Shown here piece after piece: positions 20,301-54,124 of a stretch of 64,000 nt of DNA. How positions within the stretch are numbered: position 1 is the first letter of the stretch; each line of letters begins with the position of its first letter. A program made the translations under genes and the position numbers. Location: positions 26,890 to 90,889 of IMG/VR virus record IMGVR_UViG_3300008108_000067; one strand, 5' to 3'. Under the pieces are notes generated by a model. That model saw only the letters and a program-made list of their open reading frames with translations. It ran no database searches and was not told where the DNA came from. The stretch comes from a virus.

Positions 20301-22333
20301 CGGTTTGAGGCAGACATTGGTAATACAAGATACGATCCTGTATTAAAATTCAATGCGTTTGTAACTTCATCAAATATTTCGAAACTACCAGTTGTAGTTG
20401 TGTCGGTTTCTCTAATACCGACAACTTGTTCATTCAATCCAAAAATACTAAGTAGTGCTTTTAATGCGTTGGCAGTACCACGGGTTTTGTTGAGGTACGG
20501 TCCATTGTGAAGAAAACGTTTCCAGAGTTCTGTTGTTGATTCACGTTTTTTCGTTATATCCGTATCTGTTGTAAAGTTGTATAGTGACGCTGCAGCGTTT
20601 GGATTAGTTAATGACAATCCAAATGATTTTGCAACATCCCATACCAAATCTTGTGACAAACCAGTAGTTGCGGTAACTTGTCTATCGTAAATTCTTGGTA
20701 AATGGTCAATGTATAGTTTTACATTATCAAAGAAATGACCAATTAAATTTGTGAACTTTATAAATTCTTGTGAATTTACATCATCGTGGAGATATAATGG
20801 TATTCCTCTGGACATTAGGTTTGCATTATTTTCATCATATCTTTGTGCAATTGCAGACTGTTCTTCGTACCAAGCAGTCGCTTGTGCACTGGTTGGAAGA
20901 TATATGGTTCCGTCAGTATCTTTCTTTGGCCACGTTCCATCTGCATGGTATTCTGTACCATTTAATTGCCAGTACACACTTGCACTGTATGCACTTCCAG
21001 ATTGATAGAAAAGATAACGTTCGTACCCATCAAATCCACGAATAATATTTTCAATTTCCAACGCTGCTGTTTTTGAACCTTCTACAAGATACAACGATGC
21101 AGATGGTATCTCATCTGGTGAGTAAATGGTAAGTATTGAACCAGTAGATACAGTTATTGATCCTGAATCGGTGACTAGTACAGGACTTGCGTATGTGGTA
21201 TTGGTATTGATAACCACATCCGTATCAATAATCGTTGCTTCACTACCAAAAATTGAACTTGATGCAAGTCCAGCAATAAATCTTGATGAATTTTCTAATT
21301 CACGTATTTTTGTTAATTTTTGTCTAAATGTTTGTAGTCTTAATTGGGCAGAACTATACGTTATAAAATTTGCATAATTCGTATAATCTACATTCAACTC
21401 TGCTGATCTATAATCATCCGTATACCATTTACGTAATATATCATCTTCAAACGTGTATCCACCGTAATTATCTGCCGACCCTGTTAGGTTAATTCCTAGG
21501 GTAGCTAATGTTTGATTTGATACCGTGTGATTATAGATGTTTAGTAATTCAGTATCCGTTATAAAACTTCTTGGTTGCGTATTCTTTGGACGTAACCACA
21601 ACGATGTATCTGGTTGTGGGAGTAATTCAAATTTAATTGTATCTGCTATTGGATTTGCAACTTCACGACTGATGAATACATTATTACCGACATCTAATTC
21701 AAAGTCGAGCGGAGATAATAATTTAACCAATAACTTACTAGGATCGTTTGGATCTAACTTCCAGTTAGTTAACAACCGTTGAGTATCTTCACCAAAATTT
21801 AATAATGTCTTTAAAAATCTATCTCTATCAAAATATTGATTTACTCTGTTAGAAACTTCATCCGTAATTACTTTTACCAACGCAGCACGTAAAGGTACTT
21901 CAACGGGGTCATATCCAGAAATATTAATATTTAACGGAATAGTTTTTTCAGAAACAATCGCATCTTCTGCAAATATTGTAACTACAACTGGTAGGGTTTT
22001 TGTTGATCCTACTAATGGTGGTAATGTTCCCAATACTGTAACAGGTGGTTGTGCTGCAACGTATTGGGCAGTTGAACTAAAATTTGATGGTGACGGTGCA
22101 GGATTTGGCATACCTCGTAGTAAAACACCACCTGGTGTTGCCTGTTCACCACCAGTTAATTCACCACTTCGATATTGTTGTATTAAATCTGTTTGATCTG
22201 CTCGTATAAATACAACACCACCAACAGCCGTAGGCACAGCTACGGCGTCTGGATAATCTCGTCCTATAAAAGAATTTGCTTCTTTTAATGATTGTATTTC
22301 CGAATTACTTAGTGGTATGTATTCGTTTGCCAT
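17396..22333 (-). CDS. Large baseplate-wedge/tail protein (1645 aa) with a LamG-like domain
   Basis: YLNKTRGTANALKALLSIFG (KGT-type wedge motif); FYLGGS...FGGYIDEVRVW LamG-like; IEPNILERKK. Confidence 0.7.
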   Translation of the reverse strand: MANEYIPLSNSEIQSLKEANSFIGRDYPDAVAVPTAVGGVVFIRADQTDLIQQYRSGELTGGEQATPGGVLLRGMPNPAPSPSNFSSTAQYVAAQPPVTVLGTLPPLVGSTKTLPVVVTIFAEDAIVSEKTIPLNINISGYDPVEVPLRAALVKVITDEVSNRVNQYFDRDRFLKTLLNFGEDTQRLLTNWKLDPNDPSKLLVKLLSPLDFELDVGNNVFISREVANPIADTIKFELLPQPDTSLWLRPKNTQPRSFITDTELLNIYNHTVSNQTLATLGINLTGSADNYGGYTFEDDILRKWYTDDYRSAELNVDYTNYANFITYSSAQLRLQTFRQKLTKIRELENSSRFIAGLASSSIFGSEATIIDTDVVINTNTTYASPVLVTDSGSITVSTGSILTIYSPDEIPSASLYLVEGSKTAALEIENIIRGFDGYERYLFYQSGSAYSASVYWQLNGTEYHADGTWPKKDTDGTIYLPTSAQATAWYEEQSAIAQRYDENNANLMSRGIPLYLHDDVNSQEFIKFTNLIGHFFDNVKLYIDHLPRIYDRQVTATTGLSQDLVWDVAKSFGLSLTNPNAAASLYNFTTDTDITKKRESTTELWKRFLHNGPYLNKTRGTANALKALLSIFGLNEQVVGIRETDTTTTGSFEIFDEVTNALNFNTGSYLVLPMSASNRPVGTLQFRFNNSIKQTTTLGVGDTASPSGSWIVKLATHPSASSPYGRIEVTDNIGEVLLSSSYADMFDTEDYFDVMLRYSTSSVNLQVAQSDGEQILFSSSMSTTGSYLRDAWPLTKNFYLGGSGSLSLNNFGGYIDEVRVWGEQISDSVFKAQVLDPGSFVGNDYTSPVESLWVRMSFHTPKNLSSGSIPNESPYRNKDGVSDPTLSLLPNITNIIAVGFENKSVYPYSMTRVSRKIRQYTTNTGAYSYGSNKIIIAPPPVFTEVSPGGELILHRKKSIVDNETRRKQQQSKSYLGFFVSPTDAVNNLLIRALGNVDVNSRVGYGTRYKSKYADIEALQNYYKQYYNATVNIPQFVRFFDELAPTLFEQASQLVPAKTILATGIVIEPNILERKKLTAEKPVKLSGANTRRNSRFANTERTYARDFDITLSTEAKIPSASGITNQVAFYTDYNTRFNINSYTVPTGDANLTFNARFSPTQVTGSGLYSTYNANTLHITQSMPMGEILTGLLNGVSIEAPGGTVRGDFNYYEGTTRSTIVSESVSSDFALFDSDVEKISYIQYLRKYAGLSLREAEEMAIGYKAGNIIDIGDLIGVSENINQANIINVIPPRTDLTDYSVANYYIKNNGIYNFETVYKEIIGLNQLNFLSGAAATWSFGTTYNKNDVVVQYGATNGSAKTANGKLFRYIAQDAPSVSYNYPSLDQNRWVPVFYRGKAVQTPYRIIFDVNKASGNESVFELPTTRVSINRPIVEPKRYSTKLTLGSVAANSRTTGLVRLQALATLFSVNVGVADVPLPAIRVRLYDTSTSRDADVNRAFGIEPLDNHGVLLDMKVENGSVSRNVGLYPPVTLINNDEGSSSSPVIYYTIEELAGNTYTNGFIVTFNYFAIEAPIQLPIGYLPRHYKFYRDNALATKRRNYLGCLQTQDTTTDGRSPVEVTFTAGTTLTVSPNILQEEESLGGINLNVN

Positions 22334-39830: not shown

Positions 39831-39863
39831 TAAAGTTTATGTAGTTTTAAATTAGTTTATAAG

Positions 39864-39936
39864 AGCCACGAATCGGGTTTGAACCGATGCGCTCCCGCTT
39901 ACAAGGCGGGTGCTCTACCAGCTGAGCTATCGTGGC
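39864..39936 (-). tRNA. tRNA-Thr(TGT)
   Basis: Cloverleaf; anticodon arm CCCGC-CTTGTAA-GCGGG. Confidence 0.93.
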
Positions 39937-39941
39937 GTTTA

Positions 39942-40026
39942 CGGACAGGGAGGGATTCGAACTCTCGGAACCTTTCGGTTCGACGGTTTTCAAGACCGTT
40001 GCAATAGACCACTCTGCCACCTGTCC
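39942..40026 (-). tRNA. tRNA-Ser(TGA)
   Basis: ACGGT-CTTGAAA-ACCGT; long variable arm; G73. Confidence 0.93.
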
Positions 40027-40034
40027 CGAAATAA

Positions 40035-40119
40035 AATAAGAACGCTCCCTATCAAACAGTTACCTGTTCTTCCTGCCACCACAACAAGTGCGCCACACTA
40101 CGCACGGGATGTTCTTATT
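40035..40119 (-). ncRNA. Candidate structured RNA between tRNA-Gly and tRNA-Ser
   Basis: Terminal stem AATAAGAAC..TCCC/GGGA..GTTCTTATT; GTGCG/CGCAC hairpin; AACAG-GTAA-CTGTT GNRA hairpin. Confidence 0.5.
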
Positions 40120-40123
40120 AAAA

Positions 40124-40196
40124 TGGAGCGGTCTGCCAGAGTTGAACTGCTCTTGTAAGCTGGAAGCTTACCGTGCTGACGTTACACTAAGACCGC
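40124..40196 (-). tRNA. tRNA-Gly(TCC), imperfect T-stem, encoded CCA
   Basis: GTAAG-CTTCCAG-CTTAC; acceptor GCGGTCT/AGACCGC; only 3 clean T-stem pairs. Confidence 0.7.
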
Positions 40197-40202
40197 GTGT
40201 TG

Positions 40203-40391
40203 TTACTTGGCTGCTGGACCTTCCTTTGGGGTGACCACGGTTGTGTCTGCTGCCTTGATTGAATCGGTGTTCAACTTAGTTGAATCAACTACCACTACGG
40301 TACTATCAGTGGTAACTTCACCCTGAACTTCTTCTGTCTTGGCACATGCCGTCAAACCAACTACTGCTACTGTAAGGATAAACTTGTACAT
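40203..40391 (-). CDS. Small lipoprotein
   Basis: Signal peptide with lipobox LTAC; GGAG SD before ATG 40391. Confidence 0.75.
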   Translation of the reverse strand: MYKFILTVAVVGLTACAKTEEVQGEVTTDSTVVVVDSTKLNTDSIKAADTTVVTPKEGPAAK

Positions 40392-40452
40392 TATGTACGC
40401 TCCATAAAATGAATAATGAAACAACCATTTAAAAATACTACGATACTACAAG

Positions 40453-40523
40453 TTGCCCTCCATGGAATCGAACCACGATTCGCTGATCCAAAGTCAGCTG
40501 TATTGCCATTATACGAGAGGGCA
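40453..40523 (-). tRNA. tRNA-Gln(TTG)
   Basis: GCTGA-CTTTGGA-TCAGC; U1-A72. Confidence 0.92.
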
Positions 40524-40524
40524 A

Positions 40525-40609
40525 TGGTGGGAAGGGGATTGATAGATTCCACTCTATCCAGCACCCCACGGACTAGAACCGTTTCCCATGCTGTTGCAAC
40601 ATTCCACCA
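40525..40609 (-). ncRNA. Candidate tRNA-like RNA with rearranged arms, ending in ACCA
   Basis: T-loop-like hairpin ACGG-TTCTAGT-CCGT precedes D-loop-like GATAGA-GTGGAA-TCTATC; 3' end TTCCCACCA. Confidence 0.5.
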
Positions 40610-40700
40610 AGTTGCCAAGCGTGTACACCCGCGTTGTATACACAAAACGGTAGAGTTCATTAATTAACGTCAGACCACTCTACCAAGCTGACGGGATCAA

Positions 40701-40793
40701 TTAGTGATTACGCTTACGATTCTTCCAACGATTTCTTCGTTTTTTCGAACCGACCTTTCTCCGACCTTTACCGCACTTTTTAGGATGTGGCAT
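40701..40793 (-). CDS. 30-aa highly basic peptide MPHPKKCGKGRRKVGSKKRRNRWKNRKRNH
   Basis: Manual translation; GGAG SD upstream. Confidence 0.65.
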   Translation of the reverse strand: MPHPKKCGKGRRKVGSKKRRNRWKNRKRNH

Positions 40794-40808
40794 CTCGTTC
40801 TCCAAAAA

Positions 40809-40882
40809 TGGTCCCTGAGGGACTTGAACCCCCGCACTTCGAATTATGAGTTCGCTGCTCTAACCGACTGAGCTAAGGGACC
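40809..40882 (-). tRNA. tRNA(CAT), probably Ile2 (lysidine type)
   Basis: Loop CTCATAA; body GGTCCCTTAGCTCAG resembles bacterial tRNA-Ile2. Confidence 0.8.
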
Positions 40883-40927
40883 GATAACTTCTATACAAGA
40901 GTTACTATTGAAAATTTACATAACCAG

Positions 40928-41001
40928 TCCGCCCCGCAGGACTTGAACCTGCACATCTTCGGTATATAAGACCGCTGCTGTCACCATTTAGCTAGAGGCG
41001 G
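40928..41001 (-). tRNA. tRNA-Ile(TAT)
   Basis: Anticodon arm GCGGT-CTTATAT-ACCGA; acceptor CCGCCTC/GGGGCGG; A73. Confidence 0.85.
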
Positions 41002-41016
41002 ATAATTCTATTTTAG

Positions 41017-41088
41017 TACCGCGTACGGGAATCGAACCCGTCTTACCAGAGTGAAAGTCTAGCGTCCTAGCCGATAGACGAACGCGGC
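41017..41088 (-). tRNA. tRNA-Glu(TTC)
   Basis: CTAGA-CTTTCAC-TCTGG. Confidence 0.93.
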
Positions 41089-41105
41089 ATCACATCAACA
41101 TTAAA

Positions 41106-41134
41106 AATATACATAGTCTGTTACTGTTTGTCAA
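41106..41134 (-). promoter_or_regulatory. Sigma70-type promoter TTGACA-N17-TATATT
   Basis: Immediately upstream of tRNA-Glu. Confidence 0.8.
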
Positions 41135-41147
41135 GCCTTGAATGATA

Positions 41148-41660
41148 TCAAAATCCCCGATATGCCATAATATTAGTTATTTTTTCACCAACTACACTAA
41201 TACTATCTACTACCTTTACTTTTTTATCATCCAAATATACTGTAATTTCATTTACCGATGTTCTGTTATTTTCACCGGAATTATTTACAACAATTCGAAT
41301 TGATTTAAATTGTTCAAATAATTTTCGGTTTTCTTCCAATACAGCTACTTTACCAGTAAATACATTTTCGTTCCATTCCGACAGTACTACATCATCTGCG
41401 TATAGTGTACTTAATCGTTTTAAATCTTTTGCAGAAAATGCATCGAAGTATTCTTTTACTATGTTTCCAATAGGTTTTTCTCTACTTAGTGGAAACAACA
41501 ACCACGCAACTAAATACACAGTAACAATTGGAAGTGGTGAAAAGAAAGAACAAATAAATACAAATCGGATGAATACAGGATCTATATTTAATTGCTCACC
41601 AATTCCTCCGCAAAATCCAGCAAGTCTTTTATTGGTTGCACTACGATAAAATTTTCTCAT
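41148..41660 (-). CDS. PspC-domain and NTF2/SnoaL-like fusion protein
   Basis: FYRSATNKRLAGFCGGIGEQLNIDPVFIR (PspC); YFDAFSAKDL...LYADDV (SnoaL-like). Confidence 0.8.
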   Translation of the reverse strand: MRKFYRSATNKRLAGFCGGIGEQLNIDPVFIRFVFICSFFSPLPIVTVYLVAWLLFPLSREKPIGNIVKEYFDAFSAKDLKRLSTLYADDVVLSEWNENVFTGKVAVLEENRKLFEQFKSIRIVVNNSGENNRTSVNEITVYLDDKKVKVVDSISVVGEKITNIMAYRGF

Positions 41661-41676
41661 ATATTCTCCTAGTTAG

Positions 41677-41750
41677 TCGGGGCGGAGGGATTTGAACCCC
41701 CGACCTCCTGCTCCCAAAGCAGGCGCGATACCAGGCTACGCTACGCCCCG
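41677..41750 (-). tRNA. tRNA-Pro(TGG)
   Basis: CCTGC-TTTGGGA-GCAGG. Confidence 0.95.
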
Positions 41751-41753
41751 AAG

Positions 41754-41834
41754 TGCTCTCGGTGAGACTCGAACTCACAAGCCTTGCGGCAGCAGTTTTT
41801 GAGACTGCCATGTATACCATTCCATCACAAGAGC
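41754..41834 (-). tRNA. tRNA-Leu(CAA)
   Basis: GCAGT-CTCAAAA-ACTGC; long variable arm. Confidence 0.93.
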
Positions 41835-41871
41835 GTTCATTACTTCCATTCATTCATTAACATTTTAAATG

Positions 41872-42098
41872 TGTAGTACAGCGGGAAAGGTGTTGTCCTG
41901 CAATCGGGTGATGAGTAGTTGCAACTCTTATCTGTGTATCGTCGTTATTCATCCTCAACTCAATGGAGTTGTTATCGGATATTTTTCTGCACGACCACCC
42001 CTATACATCGTCGTTATTCATCCTAACCCCAGGGGGTTTTCATCAGACGCCTTTCCATACGACCACTAACCGGCTAAGAGCCGTCCTGCTGTACTACA
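41872..42098 (-). ncRNA. Candidate 227-nt structured RNA with two tandem homologous domains
   Basis: 15-bp terminal stem; 18-nt direct repeat at 41938 and 42007; covarying internal hairpins. Confidence 0.65.
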
Positions 42099-42169
42099 TG
42101 GCTCGCTTGGGAGTCGAACCCAACTTTCTAGGTTATGATCCTAGCGTGACACCAGTTCACTTGCCAGCT
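42099..42169 (-). tRNA. Atypical or degenerate tRNA(CAT)
   Basis: CTAGG-ATCATAA-CCTAG; canonical T-arm; acceptor has A1-C72 and G5-G68 mismatches. Confidence 0.6.
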
Positions 42170-42217
42170 ACTGAAATTCTACACCTTGCCATATATTCAA
42201 TGATTTCCTTATTTTCA

Positions 42218-42246
42218 AGTATAATCAATGCTTCTTCTAATGTCAA
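42218..42246 (-). promoter_or_regulatory. Sigma70-type promoter TTGACA-N17-TATACT
   Basis: Upstream of the atypical tRNA(CAT) and the 227-nt RNA. Confidence 0.7.
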
Positions 42247-42366
42247 GTATTTAATTACCATAATATTCTCGTGTTGTAAAACATAACGACAGGACTTACG
42301 ACATAAGACATTCCATTCTTTCTGTTCGCCTACTACCAGTGGGTTGGTGGTTATCGTTATGTTTAG

Positions 42367-42438
42367 AGCACGTGGCGGGAATCGAACCCGCGTCTCTAGC
42401 TTGGAAGGCTAGGATAATAGCCATTATATGACACGTGC
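42367..42438 (-). tRNA. tRNA-Gly(TCC)
   Basis: CTAGC-CTTCCAA-GCTAG. Confidence 0.92.
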
Positions 42439-42537
42439 GGCGAGGTCTTTTTCACGCAGTTCCTCATCTTCGGTCTGGCACGATTCCAGACGAGTTGCGC
42501 TTGCTTTTAAGCTGCTTTCAACCCCCACAACTATTTT

Positions 42538-42747
42538 TTATTCAGAAAAATACTTATTCAAAGTTTCTAACTTATCATCGGCATCAACAAGCATCTGTAA
42601 TGCTTCTTCTGCATTCTTATAAAAATCACCAGTAGAATGGTCACCAATCCCAACAGGAACATTCATCAACAAGTCCAGTGAGAGAAGTGCCTTCTGTCGT
42701 TCTGCTTCTGCTTGCGTTCGTAACATTTCAACTACACGTGCTTTCAT
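42538..42747 (-). CDS. Small hypothetical protein (PVGIGDHS motif)
   Basis: GGAGG SD before ATG 42747. Confidence 0.75.
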   Translation of the reverse strand: MKARVVEMLRTQAEAERQKALLSLDLLMNVPVGIGDHSTGDFYKNAEEALQMLVDADDKLETLNKYFSE

Positions 42748-42767
42748 AATAACCTCCATTAGTAAAA

Positions 42768-42841
42768 TGGACGCTGAGGGATTCGAACCCCCGACATTTT
42801 GCGTGTAAAGCAAACACTCTAACCAGCTGAGTTAAGCGTCC
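42768..42841 (-). tRNA. tRNA-Val(TAC)
   Basis: TTTGC-TTTACAC-GCAAA. Confidence 0.93.
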
Positions 42842-42938
42842 GTTGTTGTCTATGAAGCCCTTTCACAAAATGTCGGACAACGCGACTACCGAGCGCAAGT
42901 ATACGCGTATCAAGCTGGGCCGCCCTCGGAATTAAAAA

Positions 42939-43011
42939 TGGATCCAGTCGGGATCGAACCGACGACCTTTCGCTTGCAAAGCGGATGCTCTCCCAGCTGA
43001 GCTATGGACCC
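42939..43011 (-). tRNA. tRNA-Ala(TGC)
   Basis: G3-U70; loop TTTGCAA. Confidence 0.94.
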
Positions 43012-43577
43012 GTGTTGTACGGAATTAAATTTAACAAGTATTCCTGATTTGTCAAGAACCATTCATACGTTAAATTTTCTGGTATTTCTATTAATTGGTT
43101 TTGACCACGTTCTAAAATGGTTAATCCCAACTCTATGTTAAATGTTTTAACAGAAAAATCTGTACGTTGACTTCTGAATTTTGCTACTGCTTTCCACACA
43201 TCTCCTGTCCACAATCCACGTTCACATAATTCTGTGTGGTGTGGCATTGGTGAACGTTGCATCAATTCGGTATGTGGTTTTGTATCGTGAACAAATATGA
43301 TACCATTATCATTTAGATGTCGAATGCTGTTATCTATATCTCTTAGGACTTGATTACATTCGTGGTCACCATCAATGAAAATAATATCATACATTTCGGT
43401 ACAGTTTTCAAAAAACTCATCAGATGTCATAGGGTATAACATATCTTTGTTATATGGATCTACCCCGTGCTTGATTGCACATTCTACATTGTAAAATGTA
43501 CCACCGTTACTAACACCGATTTCTAAGTATCTTGTATAATTTCGTTCAGCAATTACAGAATTAAATAATTCAAACAT
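43002..43577 (-). CDS. Class I SAM-dependent methyltransferase (Methyltransf_24-like)
   Basis: YLEIGV, DIIFIDGDH, GIIFVHD, WTGDVWK; start at 43577 after the GGAG SD. Confidence 0.85.
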   Translation of the reverse strand: MFELFNSVIAERNYTRYLEIGVSNGGTFYNVECAIKHGVDPYNKDMLYPMTSDEFFENCTEMYDIIFIDGDHECNQVLRDIDNSIRHLNDNGIIFVHDTKPHTELMQRSPMPHHTELCERGLWTGDVWKAVAKFRSQRTDFSVKTFNIELGLTILERGQNQLIEIPENLTYEWFLTNQEYLLNLIPYNTGP

Positions 43578-43589
43578 ATTTTCTCCAAG

Positions 43590-43661
43590 AGCGAGAGATG
43601 GGATTCGAACCCACGACAACGTGCTTGGCAAGCACGGACTCTACCACTGAGCTACTCTCGC
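43590..43661 (-). tRNA. tRNA-Gly(GCC)
   Basis: CGTGC-TTGCCAA-GCACG. Confidence 0.93.
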
Positions 43662-43666
43662 ATTTA

Positions 43667-43831
43667 CTACACAGGACCAACTTCATAATGCGTCAATACT
43701 TTTCCTTTTAATGCTGCTTGTGCATCAACATCATTACGAAACATCGTAATAGCTGCCGTTGCTTCAGGTGCCATATATGTAAAATCCATACTACCACCAT
43801 CAAAATATATTTTTACTAAATATTTACTCAT
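43667..43831 (-). CDS. 54-aa hypothetical protein MSKYLVKIYFDGGSMDFTY...
   Basis: Manual translation; fills the gap between two tRNAs. Confidence 0.6.
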   Translation of the reverse strand: MSKYLVKIYFDGGSMDFTYMAPEATAAITMFRNDVDAQAALKGKVLTHYEVGPV

Positions 43832-43839
43832 ATAGTTAG

Positions 43840-43922
43840 TGCTCCTGGTCGGACTCGAACCGACAAGCCTTGTGAGCGAGAGATTTTAAGTCTCTTGTGT
43901 TTACCGATTTCACCACAGGAGC
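43840..43922 (-). tRNA. tRNA-Leu(TAA)
   Basis: AGAGA-CTTAAAA-TCTCT; long variable arm. Confidence 0.93.
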
Positions 43923-43937
43923 AAAATTGGATGAGTT

Positions 43938-44133
43938 GTTGTAGTATCCTCTCATTTTATAGAGAAGAATTTACCTATCATCATTAGTGCCATCCTCACT
44001 AATGTTTATCCATACACGTTGATTTCTACTTACGGACTCTTCCCCTGCACCGTTGTAGTGGTGTCTCGACGTAAGGATCATAGAGAAGTCGTGTGGCGCG
44101 GGTTTAAACCATACCGCGGGTAAATTCTACAAC
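43938..44133 (-). ncRNA. Candidate ~200-nt multibranched structured RNA
   Basis: Nested stems GTTGTAG/CTACAAC, AATTTACC/GGTAAATT, CGCGG/CCGCG, CACG/CGTG, CTTACG/CGTAAG, CATTAGTG/CACTAATG. Confidence 0.55.
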
Positions 44134-44158
44134 CACCTTTACATTTTTTAATCAGCAG

Positions 44159-44232
44159 TGCCCCCACTAGGACTCGAACCTAGAACTTACTGGTTAAAAG
44201 CCAGCTACTCTGACCAATTGAGTTATGGAGGC
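44159..44232 (-). tRNA. tRNA-Lys(TTT)
   Basis: GCTGG-CTTTTAA-CCAGT. Confidence 0.93.
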
Positions 44233-44249
44233 GTTTAACTTACACAAGT

Positions 44250-44278
44250 AATATATATTACCCACGTACAAATGTCAA
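44250..44278 (-). promoter_or_regulatory. Sigma70-type promoter TTGACA-N17-TATATT
   Basis: Immediately upstream of tRNA-Lys. Confidence 0.8.
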
Positions 44279-44305
44279 GCCCCCAATCTAAATAAATAGT
44301 AAATA

Positions 44306-44419
44306 TTATTTTTTTCGTTTTTTTGGAGTCTTTTTTACGGTTGTAGATTTTACTTTTATTCTAGCTTGCCACGATTTCTTTGGTTTTCTCGTGTGTGACT
44401 TTCTTCGTGTCCATGCCAT
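44306..44419 (-). CDS. 37-aa highly basic peptide MAWTRRKSHTRKPKKSWQARIKVKSTTVKKTPKKRKK
   Basis: Manual translation; AGGAG SD upstream. Confidence 0.6.
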   Translation of the reverse strand: MAWTRRKSHTRKPKKSWQARIKVKSTTVKKTPKKRKK

Positions 44420-44439
44420 ATATACATTTCTCCTATTAA

Positions 44440-44526
44440 CGGAAGAGGTGGGATTCGAACCCACGGTAGGAATTACCCTACGGCTGTTTAGTAGACAGCT
44501 GCCTTAAACCACTCGGCCACCCTTCC
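44440..44526 (-). tRNA. tRNA-Ser(ACT), unusual A34 anticodon
   Basis: GCTGT-CTACTAA-ACAGC; Ser-type body with long variable arm and G73. Confidence 0.88.
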
Positions 44527-44531
44527 AACAC

Positions 44532-45557
44532 TCACTGATAATCAGCTCTCCAAACATTGCTTGTTTCTGAGTAACTTTCATTCAATATTTTTAACGAGTA
44601 TTCTACGTAATTATCACCATCAAACCAACCAGAACCCTTATGCTTAACCATATCTACATATCCACGAAGTTGAATTTTTGTGATATTATGGTTACCTGCT
44701 TGTAGAAAATATTGTACAGTTCCACCTTTATCGTGACTAATAGTTAATTGTAACTTATCACTTCCAAATTCTTTCCACAATTGTTCCAAATCTTCATGTT
44801 GTCCTTTATGTGCTTTAAATTCATTTGGATAATGACAAGAAATCCAATTAAATTTATGTAGATTAGCACATTCTCGTGACAATCCCACAAAATCATTTCT
44901 AACCTTTTGTTGTTGCAAATTAAAAACTAGTCGTGGATTGTTTATATAATGTTTATCCGATAATCGTTCGTTTACTGTTAATTTCCGTATCATATAATCG
45001 TATGTTAATGAATTTTCATCATATATGTCCATACGCACAGGTTCATCAAAGATATATTCTTTTTCTTTGTATCTGAAATTATACGGATACGCATCTCCAG
45101 CCAACGAAACAAATACAGAACGATTAACCGTTGTTAATCCTTGAATTGAGTCCAAATGATTTTTAAAATTTGGAAGAAACTCAATGTCGGTGTCGGTATG
45201 AAAAATCCAATCGGCATCAAAGAAATTATATTTTTTGGAATAGTCAAACATCATATTCATGTTTAACCCAATCTTTGCAAACCAATGTTGGCTTTTCATA
45301 AACTCTACTGATTTTTCTGGAAGTTCCATTTCATTAACATTACGAACTTCTACGATATCTTCCAATCCAAAATCTTTAACACGTTGCCACGTTAAACTAT
45401 CTTCTGATTTTTCTGGATTTGCATTGTTAAAAAGTATAACCTTAGTTTCAAAATGTGGAACTACGTTAACTTTTAAAGAAGCCAAATAAAGATTTATGTA
45501 TCGTAAATCTTCTTCTTCATTTGTTTTTCCACAAGTTGATAGTATCAAAATTTTCAT
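44532..45557 (-). CDS. Putative GT-A fold glycosyltransferase-like protein
   Basis: WIFHTDTDIEF DxD motif; start at 45557 after the GGAG SD. Confidence 0.5.
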   Translation of the reverse strand: MKILILSTCGKTNEEEDLRYINLYLASLKVNVVPHFETKVILFNNANPEKSEDSLTWQRVKDFGLEDIVEVRNVNEMELPEKSVEFMKSQHWFAKIGLNMNMMFDYSKKYNFFDADWIFHTDTDIEFLPNFKNHLDSIQGLTTVNRSVFVSLAGDAYPYNFRYKEKEYIFDEPVRMDIYDENSLTYDYMIRKLTVNERLSDKHYINNPRLVFNLQQQKVRNDFVGLSRECANLHKFNWISCHYPNEFKAHKGQHEDLEQLWKEFGSDKLQLTISHDKGGTVQYFLQAGNHNITKIQLRGYVDMVKHKGSGWFDGDNYVEYSLKILNESYSETSNVWRADYQ

Positions 45558-45572
45558 AATTTCTCCAAAATA

Positions 45573-45646
45573 CGGAATGGACGGGACTCGAACCCGCAAC
45601 CCCCGCAGTGACAGTGCGGTGCGCTAACCGATTGCGCCACCACTCC
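45573..45646 (-). tRNA. tRNA-Asp(GTC)
   Basis: CCGCA-CTGTCAC-TGCGG. Confidence 0.94.
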
Positions 45647-45655
45647 CAGCAACAA

Positions 45656-45913
45656 TTATTTAATTTTACTCTGCGTTACTGTTTCGTAAAGTTTTTCAAA
45701 CTCTTGATGCGTTGCTACTTCGTCATCAAAATTCTGCTTGTGATACGTCTTTGCTAACTTACGAAAAACTTTCTTGTTAAGTTGAAGTTCTTCACAGATA
45801 TCATTGATAATGTTTTTCTGTAAGTCTCGTTCTGCGGAAATTCGTGTCATAGATACACTCATATCCTTTAATGCACCTTCCAACTTCAACTTGTCATTCG
45901 GTGTTAAATTCAT
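45656..45913 (-). CDS. Double-stranded DNA-binding protein (T4 DsbA / GapR-like)
   Basis: SMTRISAERDLQKNI...KKVFRKLAKTYHKQNF...FEKLYE. Confidence 0.75.
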   Translation of the reverse strand: MNLTPNDKLKLEGALKDMSVSMTRISAERDLQKNIINDICEELQLNKKVFRKLAKTYHKQNFDDEVATHQEFEKLYETVTQSKIK

Positions 45914-45955
45914 AATAACCTCGTTGTTGTGATGTTGTAAATAAAATGTTTTTCG

Positions 45956-46051
45956 TTATGAATCTTCTTTTTCTAAGAATCTAGCAATGTATACAGTTCC
46001 ACCCACTGCACACATCATAACCACTAAAAATATTAGAATTGCGGATAACAT
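45956..46051 (-). CDS. 31-aa membrane peptide MLSAILIFLVVMMCAVGGTVYIARFLEKEDS
   Basis: AGGAG SD; one TM segment. Confidence 0.55.
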   Translation of the reverse strand: MLSAILIFLVVMMCAVGGTVYIARFLEKEDS

Positions 46052-46069
46052 ATTTTCTCCTATGGTAAG

Positions 46070-46142
46070 CTCCCAGAGAGGGACTCGAACCCCCGACCCG
46101 GTGATTAACAGTCACCTGCTCTACCGACTGAGCTATCTGGGA
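46070..46142 (-). tRNA. tRNA-Asn(GTT)
   Basis: GGTGA-CTGTTAA-TCACC. Confidence 0.94.
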
Positions 46143-46264
46143 ATATTGTGAGATTCGCACTCACTTGGGGTCATTCAGCAACATCTACATATCAGCAGTT
46201 GCCACCGATATGTCTCTGGTATCAGCCTTCACCCCTAGCTTACCAAATTAAAACTTATCTTCCT

Positions 46265-47389
46265 TTATGGTACTATAACTACCTTTGCATTATCCGAAAC
46301 TGTTCCAATTGATGCCGAAACAAATGTGGTTCCTGGCGCGATACCCAACAAAAGACCAATATTCGACACTCGTGCTGTTGCATTGTTAGTGGTGGTCCAC
46401 TCAAACGGACGACCATTCAGTGCTGCGACACTCAAAGGAACACTATCAGCATCAAATGCTGTGGCTGTGTATTGACGGGTAGCACCCACCTTCAGGTCTG
46501 AACTATCAGGTGAAACCACAATGTAATCAATACCCACTTCTGTTACATTCACCACCAATGTACCCACTCTGTTTTCAACAACACAAGTAATAATCGTGGT
46601 ACCGTAGGTAAGGCCTGTGATTACACCCGTTGCAGAAACGGTAGCAATGGATTCATCACTACTATGCCAACCAAATGTGCGTTGTGCAGCGGTCAGTGCT
46701 GTACCTGAACTGTTACGCAAATCTGCGACAACTGTTGCAGGGCGTCCAACATGAGCTGGCTTAGGCAATGTGAGAAGTACACGAGCGACAGGAACCAAAG
46801 ATACCGTGACGTTCAACGTACCTGTTTTTCCACCCGAAGTTGCGGTAATAGTAGTTGTACCTGCCGACAATGCAGTAATCAATCCTGTTGCGGACACTGA
46901 GGCGACGGCTGGCGTGCTTGATGTCCAAGTAGTGGTGAATGATGTCAGTGTATTATTTCCACTGTCCCGTGCAACAGAGGTTGCCTGTAATGTCTGACCA
47001 ACAAAAAACGTAGGCGGTACAGTTGCCGTTACTGTGACAGTAGCTACTGTTGGGTCTGTTACGAAAATCGTAGCAGTTGCGAATTTACCACCCACTGCCG
47101 CTGTAATTGTAGCTTGACCCTTGGATACTCCTGTTACTAACCCATTAACAACTGTTGCGACCGATGTATTATTTGATGACCATGCAACTGTTTGATCTCT
47201 CATAACAGAATCACGTTGATCTTTAACAGTGGGCGTGATGTTAATTGTACGTCCAATTTCAAGTTGTGTAGCAGTAACATTTAATGATACTGTTGTTACC
47301 GCCGGTGTTACTGGAGCCGTAACAACGGCTTCTTCCGTGCACGCGGTAATACTCAATGCCAACAATGTTCCATACAAAATACGCTTCAT
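46265..47389 (-). CDS. Lipoprotein with four bacterial Ig-like (Big_2) domains
   Basis: Lipobox ITAC; four repeats of W-x-S/T...VA-x-V...G-x-V/I/L...G-x-T/A. Confidence 0.88.
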   Translation of the reverse strand: MKRILYGTLLALSITACTEEAVVTAPVTPAVTTVSLNVTATQLEIGRTINITPTVKDQRDSVMRDQTVAWSSNNTSVATVVNGLVTGVSKGQATITAAVGGKFATATIFVTDPTVATVTVTATVPPTFFVGQTLQATSVARDSGNNTLTSFTTTWTSSTPAVASVSATGLITALSAGTTTITATSGGKTGTLNVTVSLVPVARVLLTLPKPAHVGRPATVVADLRNSSGTALTAAQRTFGWHSSDESIATVSATGVITGLTYGTTIITCVVENRVGTLVVNVTEVGIDYIVVSPDSSDLKVGATRQYTATAFDADSVPLSVAALNGRPFEWTTTNNATARVSNIGLLLGIAPGTTFVSASIGTVSDNAKVVIVP

Positions 47390-47457
47390 TTTTTTCTCCT
47401 ACTAAGGTAATCCGACACAACCGAGTGTTGTGCCTTCTAAGCCGGGATATCCCGACA

Positions 47458-47529
47458 CAGGCCCACTAGGACTCGAACCTAGACAAACGCTTTTGGAGAG
47501 CGTTGTGCTGCCAATTACACCATGAACCC
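47458..47529 (-). tRNA. tRNA-Trp(CCA)
   Basis: ACGCT-CTCCAAA-AGCGT. Confidence 0.92.
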
Positions 47530-47533
47530 AGAG

Positions 47534-47607
47534 TACACCAGGCTAGAGTTGAACTAGCGACCTTTCGTGTATCAGACGAATGCTCTAACCAACTGAGCTA
47601 CTGGTGT
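47534..47607 (-). tRNA. tRNA-Ile(GAT)
   Basis: TTCGT-CTGATAC-ACGAA. Confidence 0.92.
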
Positions 47608-47620
47608 GCATCTTACAAAA

Positions 47621-47703
47621 TGGGAGTGGTTGGACTCGAACCAACGTAGATTATTAATCGGCAGATTTACAGTCTGCTGCCATTGCCGCTAGGCGACACT
47701 CCC
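47621..47703 (-). tRNA. tRNA-Tyr(GTA)
   Basis: GCAGA-CTGTAAA-TCTGC; long variable arm. Confidence 0.93.
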
Positions 47704-47709
47704 AAACTA

Positions 47710-48291
47710 CTATTTTTTCAAATCGTTTTTGATGTCTCGTTTGACCTTTTTAAGATAACCAATTCGCGTTTCATTGTCAACGAATGGTACACTCCAAAAC
47801 TGTCGTGTATTTGTCTTAAACCACCCAAATACAAATGAATATACTCCTAATACTAACCGTAATTTTACGGCATTGAAATATAACATATATACAGGAAGTG
47901 CGGGTGCTCCGTGTGTTAAGTATGTACGAACCTTTTTGTGTGACAATAATGGTTTTGGATAACCATATTTTGGAATTAACGGAACAAACTTATATGCGAA
48001 TCCTGGTGTGAATACCACATCAAAGAATTCTTCCATTAGTGGTGTACACCGAAACCACCACACAGGTGATATAATGTAAATTCTATCTGCCCATGTCACC
48101 AACTCTTGATAATGTTTAATAACTTCTTTCTTTTTGATGGAAAGATCATCTTTATAGAGGTCAATGACTTCTATGGTTTGTGTAGATTCATAGCTTGCGT
48201 TATTAGTTAATTCGTCTTTAATGGTTTTAAAAATACCATTATAACAAAAACTTTTCTTATCAGGATGTCCGATGACTATTAAATTGTTCAT
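47710..48291 (-). CDS. Flavodoxin-like NAD(P)H-dependent oxidoreductase
   Basis: IGHPDKKSF, IDLYKD, SPVWWF, VFTPGFAY. Confidence 0.88.
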   Translation of the reverse strand: MNNLIVIGHPDKKSFCYNGIFKTIKDELTNNASYESTQTIEVIDLYKDDLSIKKKEVIKHYQELVTWADRIYIISPVWWFRCTPLMEEFFDVVFTPGFAYKFVPLIPKYGYPKPLLSHKKVRTYLTHGAPALPVYMLYFNAVKLRLVLGVYSFVFGWFKTNTRQFWSVPFVDNETRIGYLKKVKRDIKNDLKK

Positions 48292-48319
48292 TTCACTCCT
48301 TGTAAAAGTTATAAAACAA

Positions 48320-48393
48320 TAGCGGGGGAGGGATTCGAACCCTCGACCTCACGATTATGAGTCGTGCGCTCTCACCAACTGAGCTACCCTGCC
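48320..48393 (-). tRNA. tRNA-Met(CAT), elongator type
   Basis: CACGA-CTCATAA-TCGTG. Confidence 0.9.
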
Positions 48394-48545
48394 ACTTTTC
48401 GAATGTATACTTTAAACCAAATAAATATTTTATCTAAATTGGAAAACGTTCTCCAATTCTTAACTTCGTTAATTGTACGATAACATCCTACACAACGTGT
48501 ACCTTCAAGTTTACATATTTTTTTACACGGAGAATTTATAACCAC
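48384..48545 (-). CDS. DUF1289-like small Cys protein (53 aa, GTG start)
   Basis: SPCKKICKL...CVGCYRTINEVKNW; manual translation. Confidence 0.75.
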   Translation of the reverse strand: MVINSPCKKICKLEGTRCVGCYRTINEVKNWRTFSNLDKIFIWFKVYIRKVAG

Positions 48546-48814
48546 CGAAATATTCCTGTTATGTCAATTAGTATCCATACCGCATTGACAATAACCATTG
48601 GATAATCTTTCTTATTAAAGAAACTGTGTAACATTCCACCGTGTCCAAAAAAGAAAAGTAAATATGGTATCCACATAGGAATGTTAGGAATTCTACCAGC
48701 TAATATAATTCCACCCACAATTAAAATTAATACAGCCCACCATTTACGTTTAACAATAATGTGCTCTTCTGTTTCTGTTAAAGTTACTGGTTTCGCAAAT
48801 AAAATATTTTTCAT
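48536..48814 (-). CDS. Small multi-pass membrane protein
   Basis: Three hydrophobic segments. Confidence 0.7.
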   Translation of the reverse strand: MKNILFAKPVTLTETEEHIIVKRKWWAVLILIVGGIILAGRIPNIPMWIPYLLFFFGHGGMLHSFFNKKDYPMVIVNAVWILIDITGIFRWL

Positions 48815-48966
48815 TTATATTGACCAGTATCTATTGAATTCTGGATATCACCACCTTGTAACACTTCTGGTTCGGTATCCCCTATAAACATAATAACACC
48901 AAAAAATATCATTACAACAATAACCAAAGTAGTTGCGATTACTTTTTTAACTTGTTTAGTATCCAT
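48811..48966 (-). CDS. Small single-pass membrane protein
   Basis: Start moved to ATG 48966 (AGGAG SD); the longer ORF reads through tRNAs. Confidence 0.6.
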   Translation of the reverse strand: MDTKQVKKVIATTLVIVVMIFFGVIMFIGDTEPEVLQGGDIQNSIDTGQYK

Positions 48967-48985
48967 AATATAATCTCCTATAAAA

Positions 48986-49068
48986 AGGTGCGAGCCAGAT
49001 TCGAACTGGCGTGGGATTTCTCCAAAGGTTTTGCAGACCCGTGCCTTCAGCCACTCGGCCATCGCACC
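48986..49068 (-). tRNA. tRNA-Cys(GCA) with a long variable arm
   Basis: Loop CTGCAAA; U73; extra arm TGGAGAAATCCCAC. Confidence 0.85.
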
Positions 49069-49071
49069 GTA

Positions 49072-49145
49072 TGCTCCTGGAGGGACTCGAACCCCCAACC
49101 CACTGAGTAGAAATCAGTTGCGCTATCCAATTACGCCACAGAAGC
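49072..49145 (-). tRNA. tRNA-Arg(TCT)
   Basis: ACTGA-TTTCTAC-TCAGT. Confidence 0.92.
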
Positions 49146-49179
49146 AGTTAATGTATTTGACCAAATTACAAAATATATT

Positions 49180-49539
49180 TTATTTACCTAAACTATGTCG
49201 AATAGGTTTTCCTGTTTCATCAACACACACAAATACCATCTCATCAATATCAACAATAACTTTTTGTGTAGTTAAATCTCGTACTTGCACTTCCAAAGTA
49301 ATAGAAGTTTTTCCAACGGTTTTTAACGCCACTCCGATTTCAACAACATCCCCTTGATATGCAGGTGCAACAAAGTTAATAGCAGACATACTTTTTGTCA
49401 CAACTTTTTTATGTCGGGTTTCAATTGCCGCATAAATTGATGCTTCTTCGTCAACCCAAGCCAAACACCGGCCCCCGAACAATGTGCCGTTTATATTTAA
49501 ATCACCTGGTTGCACCAATTTTCTAGTTAAGAATCTCAT
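49180..49539 (-). CDS. Acyl-CoA thioesterase (hotdog fold)
   Basis: PGDLNINGTLFGGRCLAWVDE, INFVAP, VGKTSI. Confidence 0.9.
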   Translation of the reverse strand: MRFLTRKLVQPGDLNINGTLFGGRCLAWVDEEASIYAAIETRHKKVVTKSMSAINFVAPAYQGDVVEIGVALKTVGKTSITLEVQVRDLTTQKVIVDIDEMVFVCVDETGKPIRHSLGK

Positions 49540-49560
49540 AAAATTTTTGTTTAAATGTTA

Positions 49561-49634
49561 TGCCCCAAGCAGGAGTCGAACCCACAACCCTCTGATCCGA
49601 AGTCAGATGCTCTATCCAATTGAGCTATTGAGGC
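49561..49634 (-). tRNA. tRNA-Arg(TCG)
   Basis: TCTGA-CTTCGGA-TCAGA; A20 in the D-loop. Confidence 0.9.
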
Positions 49635-49637
49635 GTA

Positions 49638-49706
49638 TCAGGTAGGAGGGAGTCTCTCCCCCCGTTCCACAGGCGGGTGCCCCTACCATCTGGGCCGCAT
49701 ACCTGA
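49638..49706 (-). ncRNA. tRNA-His(GTG)-like element lacking a canonical T-loop
   Basis: D-arm GCCC-AGATGGTAG-GGGC; anticodon loop CTGTGGA; T-arm replaced by GGGAG-AGA-CTCCC. Confidence 0.5.
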
Positions 49707-49738
49707 ATTATGTTTTCATATAATACCATTGGGAATAA

Positions 49739-50116
49739 TTATATTTTTCTTACGCTGCCATCTTCGTTTTCGGTACACTTTCGAAACCAAATTACGCCTG
49801 CTTCATTTCTATGTTTTCCGAAACACAATACCGCGGTGATACCAAAATTCCACGGATCATTAGGGTTAACCTTCTTGCCATTCACTCGTAACTGCGTGGG
49901 ATTCTTTTTGAACTGTCCTTTACTCTTGACGAATCCAGCCGATTCAAAGACATCCAGTATGGTTTGTTTTTCTGGTAATTCAATAAATCGTAAACCAACT
50001 GCGAACACACAATCTGCCACACTATTTCTATCCAGCTTCGTACATGTCATCACATCTTCTAATGAGGTGATATCATTAAAATCTTCGGGAGTTAAAAACG
50101 GCTTTTCATCATCCAT
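49739..50116 (-). CDS. Hypothetical protein with an S4-like RNA-binding motif
   Basis: ILDVFESAGFVKSKGQF...LRVNGKKV resembles the TyrRS C-terminal S4 domain. Confidence 0.55.
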   Translation of the reverse strand: MDDEKPFLTPEDFNDITSLEDVMTCTKLDRNSVADCVFAVGLRFIELPEKQTILDVFESAGFVKSKGQFKKNPTQLRVNGKKVNPNDPWNFGITAVLCFGKHRNEAGVIWFRKCTENEDGSVRKI

Positions 50117-50119
50117 GTA

Positions 50120-50527
50120 TTAATCCCATAATCCTTCGTAATATTTTCCAAACAATCGAAGTCCATTAATGATACGTACTTGGTTTACATATTTTTCCGT
50201 CCAAGTGCAATTTTGTTTACTTTCAAAGGCAAAAATCATTTCATCCATGACCCAATCCCATCGCTTAAAATAATTGTCATCCGTATCCCAATCATTTTCA
50301 GTCGGTGGAGCTGCTGATTTGCGAAGGTGTTCGGGAACATCTTCGTCATCAACATGTGGTGCGCCGTGTTTTGTTTCTTTCAATTGCTTAAGCATAGGAA
50401 GAATGATATGCGCTAATGTCACATCCATGCTCCATGTATCCCATGGATCAATTTTCACAGAAATCTTCTGTTCTTTGTTTGAATCTTTTGGATAGCGACC
50501 AATGGAAACTTTCATATTAATATTCAA
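50120..50527 (-). CDS. Phage hypothetical protein
   Basis: DPWDTWSMD...RWDWVMDEMIFAF...GLRLFGKYYEGLWD. Confidence 0.75.
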   Translation of the reverse strand: MNINMKVSIGRYPKDSNKEQKISVKIDPWDTWSMDVTLAHIILPMLKQLKETKHGAPHVDDEDVPEHLRKSAAPPTENDWDTDDNYFKRWDWVMDEMIFAFESKQNCTWTEKYVNQVRIINGLRLFGKYYEGLWD

Positions 50528-50810
50528 CCTTGATATAATGTTCTGTTGTGAGATGCATCTTTTTACGATAGAAATGTTTCATCTTGTAAGCCAACATTAC
50601 AACTACAACTATAAAATTGAAAATATAATTCATCATCAATGGAATATTCCACAACATAATAGCATACGTTGTCATGAATATTTCACCAATAAACCAAAGT
50701 AACAACATAGGCCAACCGATATGACATCGTTTATCCGTAATGGTTCTAAACAACTCCGGAATAGCATTAATCGTGAGAAAAATACTCCCTATATATCCAA
50801 TCGTTTCCAT
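50517..50810 (-). CDS. PQ-loop/SemiSWEET-like membrane protein
   Basis: IGYIGSIFLTINAIPEL; three TM segments; PLMMNY. Confidence 0.7.
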   Translation of the reverse strand: METIGYIGSIFLTINAIPELFRTITDKRCHIGWPMLLLWFIGEIFMTTYAIMLWNIPLMMNYIFNFIVVVVMLAYKMKHFYRKKMHLTTEHYIKVEY

Positions 50811-50832
50811 ATTATTTACCCAAATGTTTTTA

Positions 50833-50916
50833 TGCACTCGGAGGGACTCGAACCCCCAATCCATTTCTGGAACTTGCTCCTAAGGCAAGCGCGTAGACCA
50901 ATTCCGCCACGAGTGC
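50833..50916 (-). tRNA. tRNA-Leu(TAG)
   Basis: CTTGC-CTTAGGA-GCAAG; long variable arm. Confidence 0.93.
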
Positions 50917-50925
50917 AACAACTAC

Positions 50926-53748: not shown

Positions 53749-53785
53749 TGTTTACTCCAACAAAATGTAAACACTAACCGTTAAG

Positions 53786-54124
53786 TGGACCTGAGGGGAA
53801 TCGAACCCCTGTCCGAGATTGCTTCCTACTAAATGTTTATGTGTGTAGTCAGTTATTTGAATTCATTCAGTTCTCATTAACTAACAAACGTAAACTGAAT
53901 ATAGAACCGAAGTATCACCTTGAATACGGTTCCTATCAAGGCTATACCACATAAATGAACAAATTAACCCTATGCGGTAATCTCAGATTAATTCGTCAGG
54001 CTGCAATTAAGCAGCGAGGGCTAAAGTATAGTTGCCAGTTAGATTTTTTGGTCTGTTTTACTCGTCTTACCAAACGAGACACAAAACTTAATCATCCACA
54101 CCCCGTCGAAACCAGGACAGGCCC
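53786..54124 (-). ncRNA. ssrA: tmRNA; tag reading frame GNYTLALAA* at 54036-54007
   Basis: 5' GGGCCTG..GGTTTCGAC, 3' GGTTCGATTCCCCTCAGGTCCA; G3-U70; TAACT before the resume codon; tag ends ALAA. Confidence 0.93.

Follow-up and report, generated by a model that had tools for sequence, protein, structure and literature searches.

In bacteria and phages the serine codons AGU and AGC (AGY) have tRNA-Ser(GCU) as their standard reader, and the sole widespread bacterial tRNA with adenosine at anticodon position 34 (A34) is tRNA-Arg(ACG), which is paired with TadA and carries inosine (I34). The seryl-tRNA synthetase, SerRS, recognises its tRNAs by the long variable arm, the acceptor stem and G73 and takes no account of the anticodon. 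A 2021 review describes A34 in the Ser-Arg split box as "universally missing" and holds that the tRNA genes missing from bacteria are missing from phages too (PMC8007984); anticodons are not discussed in the phage tRNA survey that it cites. A GtRNAdb survey found that ANN genes of 2-fold boxes are sporadic in bacterial genomes and always lie beside a GNN gene, and it regarded the scarcity of ANN tRNAs as still unexplained, with phages outside its scope (bioRxiv 10.64898/2026.05.15.725136). When 15 ANN anticodons were placed in E. coli in a tRNA whose loop is identical to that of the gene described here, the ACU version (CUACUAA) received no inosine from E. coli TadA and read AGU at 9.4% and AGG at 0.36%, with AGC and AGA below detection (Front Genet 2024, PMC11066159). 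An engineered Ser-tRNA(ACU) gave better E. coli growth with low estimated mistranslation (bioRxiv 10.64898/2026.05.15.725136). Literature text searches found no paper describing a tRNA-Ser(ACU) in phages.

The gene described here lies in a stretch of 64,000 nucleotides of viral DNA (the window), the final 64 kb of a 90,889-bp IMG/VR virus record that is estimated to be 47% complete. The window has a GC content of 38%, and its phage has genes for a large terminase (TerL) and baseplate wedge proteins. The terminase shares 54% identity with its counterpart in Flavobacterium phage immuto and 52% with that in Microcystis phage Mel-JY01; these relatives, together with a phage-encoded tmRNA (53785-54124, minus strand; Rfam 138 bits, ARAGORN) whose tag peptide, GNYTLALAA, starts with G, are weak hints of a host among the Bacteroidota or cyanobacteria. 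No close cultured relative is known, because a megablast of the surroundings of the Ser(ACU) gene against cultured phages gave a tRNA-Lys of phage S-CBWM1 as its sole match. The nearest TerL relatives (immuto, Mel-JY01 and LR756508) are uninformative on A34, since none has a Ser(NCU) gene of the pattern searched for.

The tRNA-Ser(ACU) gene (44440..44526, minus strand) is 87 nt long, does not encode CCA and has the discriminator base G73; ARAGORN, Rfam, the cloverleaf fold and the relatives all identify it. The ARAGORN call of tRNA-Ser(act) in the window spans 44439-44527 on the minus strand, and the Rfam RF00005 match at 44440-44526 scores 56.7 bits against a cut-off of 29. The fold is a textbook class II cloverleaf (MFE -33.5 kcal/mol) with stems of 7 bp (acceptor), 3 bp (D), 5 bp (anticodon, GCUGU/ACAGC), 6 bp (variable) and 5 bp (T). 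It thus has the long variable arm (stem of at least 3 bp), 3-bp D stem and G73 of a class II tRNA-Ser, and the body reads as serine because G73 is common to it and the co-resident tRNA-Ser(UGA) (39942..40026, minus strand; ARAGORN), the phage's sole other serine tRNA, whereas the class II Leu and Tyr tRNAs of the same array have A73. The anticodon (44490..44492, minus strand) is the reverse complement of AGT on the plus strand, and A34, which stands where the canonical AGY reader has G34, is the complement of the plus-strand T at 44492. The initial annotation of a tRNA-Ser with an ACT anticodon and a clean body was therefore correct, as were its coordinates; the strand, which it did not give, is minus. 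The gene is a variant of tRNA-Ser, not a new system. Its 7-nt anticodon loop is C32 U33 A34 C35 U36 A37 A38. tRNA-Arg(ACG) shares with it a gene-encoded A34 and the loop C32 U33 A34 C35 N36 A37 A38, and the arginine loop, CUACGAA, differs only at position 36, where Ser(ACU) has U36 in place of the G36 of TadA substrates.

The gene belongs to an array of 27 tRNA genes at 39863..50917, all on the minus strand (ARAGORN, Rfam and a table of loops). The array supplies U34 tRNAs for family boxes and G34 tRNAs for Asn, Asp, Tyr, Cys and Ile; a G34 tRNA serves every NNY split box other than that of serine, and the loops are ordinary apart from serine position 34. AGA and AGG, the other half of the AGN box, have tRNA-Arg(UCU) as their reader (49071..49146, minus strand; ARAGORN). 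Neither ARAGORN nor Rfam found a Ser(GCU) gene in this array of a genome that is 47% complete.

That A34 is not an assembly or sequencing error follows from its recurrence. A scan of IMG/VR with the anticodon arm, leaving any base at position 34, matched nine contigs and returned A34 in all nine, so the variant, which the initial annotation had proposed to look for in related phages, is not absent from them. One of the relatives, L003, comes from a different sample and has an identical tRNA within 3.7 kb that are 96% identical to the window. The others are more diverged: L179 is syntenic with the window at about 76% identity, L004/G001, L009 and L166 have only scattered flank similarity of 70-87%, and in L001, L005-L008, L149 and L173 the tRNA is the sole detectable similarity. 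Across this family tRNA identity is 76-93%, with no reversion of A34 among 10 sequences. In six distinct family sequences all 150 of 150 pair cells are standard pairs, and 9 of the 25 pairs have double-sided changes, a number matched by none of 500 shuffles. This pattern of compensation indicates that the fold is under selection. As a separate observation, the Ser(ACT) genes of L001, L005, L006, L007 and L008 have U at the discriminator position, where bacterial tRNA-Ser typically has G73.

The gene is intact and conserved, and it recurs well beyond this family. A broad pattern, comprising the serine D arm and CTACTAA, matched 67 IMG/VR contigs, with a Ser(ACU) gene confirmed by ARAGORN in 66. 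Counting the window's gene, the 67 loci contain 37 distinct tRNA sequences with at least 12 different anticodon stems; CCA is encoded by some and not by others. For most of these ACU tRNAs the nearest sequence is another ACU tRNA rather than one of the sampled GCU tRNAs, and the ACU tRNAs fall into two main groups and a few singletons. With any base allowed at position 34, the broad scan gave, among the matches listed, at least 4 Ser(ACT) and at least 86 Ser(GCT) genes by ARAGORN. The ACU gene replaces GCU in phage arrays: ARAGORN found Ser(GCT) in none of the 67 viral loci and Ser(TGA) in five, and an 89%-complete relative of 166.6 kb (G001), whose 31 tRNAs cover all 20 amino acids, has Ser(TGA) and Ser(ACT) as its serine set, without Ser(GCT). 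Among cultured phages, the 350-kb jumbo Salmonella phage Munch has a tRNA-Ser(ACT) (MK268344.1, 266654-266744; L207 61-151) with the loop CTACTAA and an encoded CCA, which its annotation calls only tRNA-Ser. Several jumbo phages related to Munch give the same BLAST identity for this tRNA, the anticodon having been read in Munch itself. The CCA-bearing ACU group typified by L130 had no match in cultured phages.

In bacteria the gene occurs in another setting. Among 185,579 species genomes the broad pattern matched 15 stretches, most of them in Polynucleobacter and other Burkholderiaceae, the remainder including a Patescibacteria MAG and a Succinatimonas MAG. Polynucleobacter sp. 71A-WALBACH has Ser(ACT) at L221 5321-5410, further Polynucleobacter cases are L189-L202, and in free-living Polynucleobacter the gene is found in up to five contigs of one assembly, often in a Thr(cgt)-Gly(ccc)-Ser(act) cluster. 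One Polynucleobacter genome has a normal serine set (CGA, UGA, GCU and GGA) with ACU as a fifth; its normal Ser(GCU) was missed by the D-arm pattern and found by an Rfam scan of the genome. In this genome the ACU gene sits on the edge of an island that contains AIPR, GIY-YIG and P63C genes. Thus, Polynucleobacter has ACU beside GCU, as in the ANN survey, whereas the phages have it in place of GCU, and the phage gene is conserved across a diversified lineage while bacterial ANN genes are sporadic. What the phage gene has in common with those sporadic genes, and with Leu(AAG) and Thr(AGU) of the Lactobacillales, is a link to AT-rich genomes and U-ending codons.

Carriers and phages with the standard tRNA differ in base composition and, modestly, in AGU use. 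The nearest G34 relative is the tRNA-Ser(GCT) of Synechococcus phage S-CBWM1 (MG450654.1, 13906-13994), which matches the window's tRNA at 38 of 40 bases across the D and anticodon arms; the D arm and the anticodon stem GCUGU/ACAGC are identical and A37 and A38 are common to both, but its loop, UUGCUAA, has G34 and U32 where the window's has A34 and C32. The S-CBWM1 genome has 51.6% GC, an AGT fraction of 0.43 and more AGC than AGT, whereas the family of the window has 36-40% GC and AGT fractions of 0.64-0.93. Across the viral loci, GC is 0.45 or less in 56 of 57 analysed viral contigs with ACU (median 0.40), and contigs with GCU range from 0.3 to 0.7 (median 0.53). Between 0.35 and 0.45 GC, the AGT log-odds relative to NGY controls is +0.13 in ACU carriers and -0.12 in GCU contigs (Mann-Whitney p=0.002, indicative only, as the GC-matched contigs are related to one another and the value overstates their independence). 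Ser(ACU) is tied to low GC and AGU-rich coding.

In the window's genome AGT outnumbers AGC by about nine-fold (522:56, or 0.90 T), a dominance that answers the comparison of the two codons proposed in the initial annotation; AGU makes up 29% and AGC 3% of serine codons. The skew is not specific to serine, however, because every NGC codon is avoided. The T fraction is 0.91 for GGT, 0.89 for CGT and 0.84 for TGT, and across AGC, GGC, CGC and TGC it is 0.84-0.91, compared with 0.57-0.74 for other Y-ending pairs, a pattern that suggests a constraint acting on GpC or on codons. The serine skew (0.90) is about that of the NGY boxes (0.89), and general NGC avoidance explains most of it. The cause and the effect in the relation of A34 to AGU skew cannot be separated here.

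We think it probable that Ser(ACU) is a functional, SerRS-charged serine tRNA with an unmodified A34 that reads AGU only and supplements the host tRNA-Ser(GCU). SerRS would charge it with serine, and a change from G34 to A34 should leave charging intact because SerRS does not read the anticodon. A34 would stay unmodified and form a Watson-Crick pair with AGU only, while the host tRNA-Ser(GCU) would go on reading the few AGC codons. Because the host set is complete and the phage tRNA would only add to it, coverage of AGC would be dispensable and a U-specialist affordable. We infer that it is expressed, charged with serine, free of inosine and, in the natural host, limited to AGU. The initial annotation had likewise suggested an unmodified A34 tuned to the AGU codons of an AT-rich phage. 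The AGT:AGC ratio, the low GC of the carriers, their modest AGU excess, the contrast with S-CBWM1 and the E. coli data (PMC11066159) argue for this tuning; the lack of serine specificity in the skew tempers it. The engineered ACU tRNAs have the same anticodon, in one study also the same 7-nt loop (PMC11066159), and are functional, AGU-specific and well tolerated. They are laboratory constructs on an archaeal tyrosine body or E. coli serine bodies, unlike the natural gene of the window, which selection maintains in phage lineages, and the result with E. coli TadA may not hold for the enzyme of the natural host.

It is plausible that the blindness of SerRS to the anticodon helps explain why serine is the split box affected, but it is insufficient alone because Asn(AUU) also occurs in two ACU-bearing contigs. 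Codon matching alone does not explain a change confined to serine either, because the Asn, Asp, Tyr, Phe, Ile and Cys boxes of the window's genome are also U-biased, yet keep G34.

The change from G34 to A34 might instead be tolerated drift, having arisen and persisted at little cost and with no real benefit. The scarcity of AGC need not be caused by the tRNA, since all NGC codons are avoided, the AGU excess of carriers over controls is small, and a synthetase blind to the anticodon would let such a change pass. Nevertheless, A34 is fixed, without reversion among 10 sequences, in tRNAs that have diverged to 76-93% identity and whose flanks are beyond detectable similarity, and it is kept by at least two large separate groups and several singletons. 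We therefore regard drift as unlikely.

Quite unlikely is the escape from a host anticodon nuclease that the initial annotation had offered as an alternative, in which the phage supplies a resistant AGY reader in the face of a tRNA-targeting defence that recognises G34 of tRNA-Ser(GCU). There are established cases of phage tRNAs made resistant to nucleases by changes in the anticodon loop (van den Berg et al. 2023, PMC10264068), serine tRNAs are among those cleaved by the HEPN protein ApeA, and a near-complete phage tRNA set is as expected were host tRNAs depleted. In the known cases of escape, however, the anticodon itself is preserved, whereas A34 means losing AGC as a codon, and all other loop positions of Ser(ACU) are canonical. 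In the literature we found no report of a nuclease that targets tRNA-Ser(GCU), which is described as the untargeted serine tRNA in mycobacteriophages (PMC10264068), and escape does not predict the link with low GC and AGU use. The proposal is thus left without support.

Conversion of A34 to inosine by a TadA-like enzyme of host or phage, giving a tRNA that reads AGU, AGC and, weakly, AGA, is very unlikely. In its favour are the loop, which is one base away from that of tRNA-Arg(ACG), and the finding that an engineered Phe-AAA, a tRNA of a 2-fold box, acquires I34 in E. coli (bioRxiv 10.64898/2026.05.15.725136). But the ACU anticodon in the same loop is free of inosine in E. coli (PMC11066159), and AGC, which an I34 reader would not require a phage to avoid, is avoided. 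Moreover, the AGN box is split, unlike the box of tRNA-Arg(ACG), and inosine would give Arg-to-Ser misreading. Such misreading of AGA had been raised in the initial annotation and applies only if I34 forms; AGA is not avoided, at 28% of Arg codons in the window's genome (with 16 AGG codons), and it is not reduced in carriers, being 0.27 of Arg codons in both the ACU and the GCU groups at 0.35-0.45 GC. No TadA-like gene was found in the window's record (47% complete) or in five relatives, and searches of the window's record for cytidine and adenosine deaminase families were empty, though a host enzyme might supply the activity. An ORF with a deaminase fold in the relatives was considered as a TadA and rejected, as it resembles dCMP or dCTP deaminases. 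Lastly, it is highly improbable that the gene is a tRNA-like element without function, or with one outside translation (a pseudogene or a recombination site, for instance), given a perfect cloverleaf maintained by compensatory changes, a place within an array of ordinary tRNAs and the occupation by Ser(ACT) of the AGY reader's place in the 20-amino-acid set of G001.

The supplementing, AGU-only tRNA that we favour has a bolder extension, unlikely in our judgement, in which these phage lineages maintain in a split box an A34 that truly remains unmodified and serves them alone as a serine decoder restricted to AGU. If so, a 20-amino-acid set of the G001 type without an AGC reader would sustain the translation of AGU-rich phage mRNAs once the host has run short of tRNA-Ser(GCU), with no gain for host mRNAs rich in AGC; phages would then offer a natural setting in which to study why A34 is kept out of split boxes in cells. 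Ser(ACU) is in any case a conserved and diversified gene family in uncultured phages, in a box where the review has A34 as "universally missing" (PMC8007984), and cultured carriers such as Munch allow direct tests of the modification of a natural A34, its reading and its value to the phage.

A34 also occurs in another split box. tRNA-Asn(ATT) genes at L158 13498-13573 and L161 3905-3980 adjoin Ser(ACT), and their body is nearly the same as that of the Asn(GTT) of a related contig. A further type, at L130 130-206, L133 4123-4199 and similar loci, consists of 74-nt tRNAs (plus CCA) that have no long variable arm and start with A1. They are Leu(aag) or Phe(aaa) according to ARAGORN, but the loop register is ambiguous and they may read other codons.

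The window has other features of note. Protein genes within the tRNA array (41148-41660, 43002-43631, 46265-47389 and 47710-48291, all minus strand) include a PspC-SnoaL fusion, a methyltransferase, a Big_2 repeat protein and a flavodoxin-like protein. A 1645-aa ORF (17396-22333, minus strand) had no PHROG match at E<=1e-5. The array also has a tRNA-Ile with the anticodon UAU (40927-41001, minus strand; ARAGORN), found in the relatives G001 and L004 as well; Ile(UAU) is listed as lost in prokaryotes (PMC8007984), and ATA makes up 27% of Ile codons in the window's genome. An 83-nt tRNA with the Cys anticodon GCA (48986-49068, minus strand; Rfam 53 bits) carries a serine-type D arm, GCCGAGUGGCUGAAGGC; its variable region of 13 nt contains a short stem, and its discriminator base is U73. 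This class-II-like tRNA, a putative tRNA-Cys by its anticodon, is unusual, and it is kept with compensatory acceptor changes in L179, L004 and L009.
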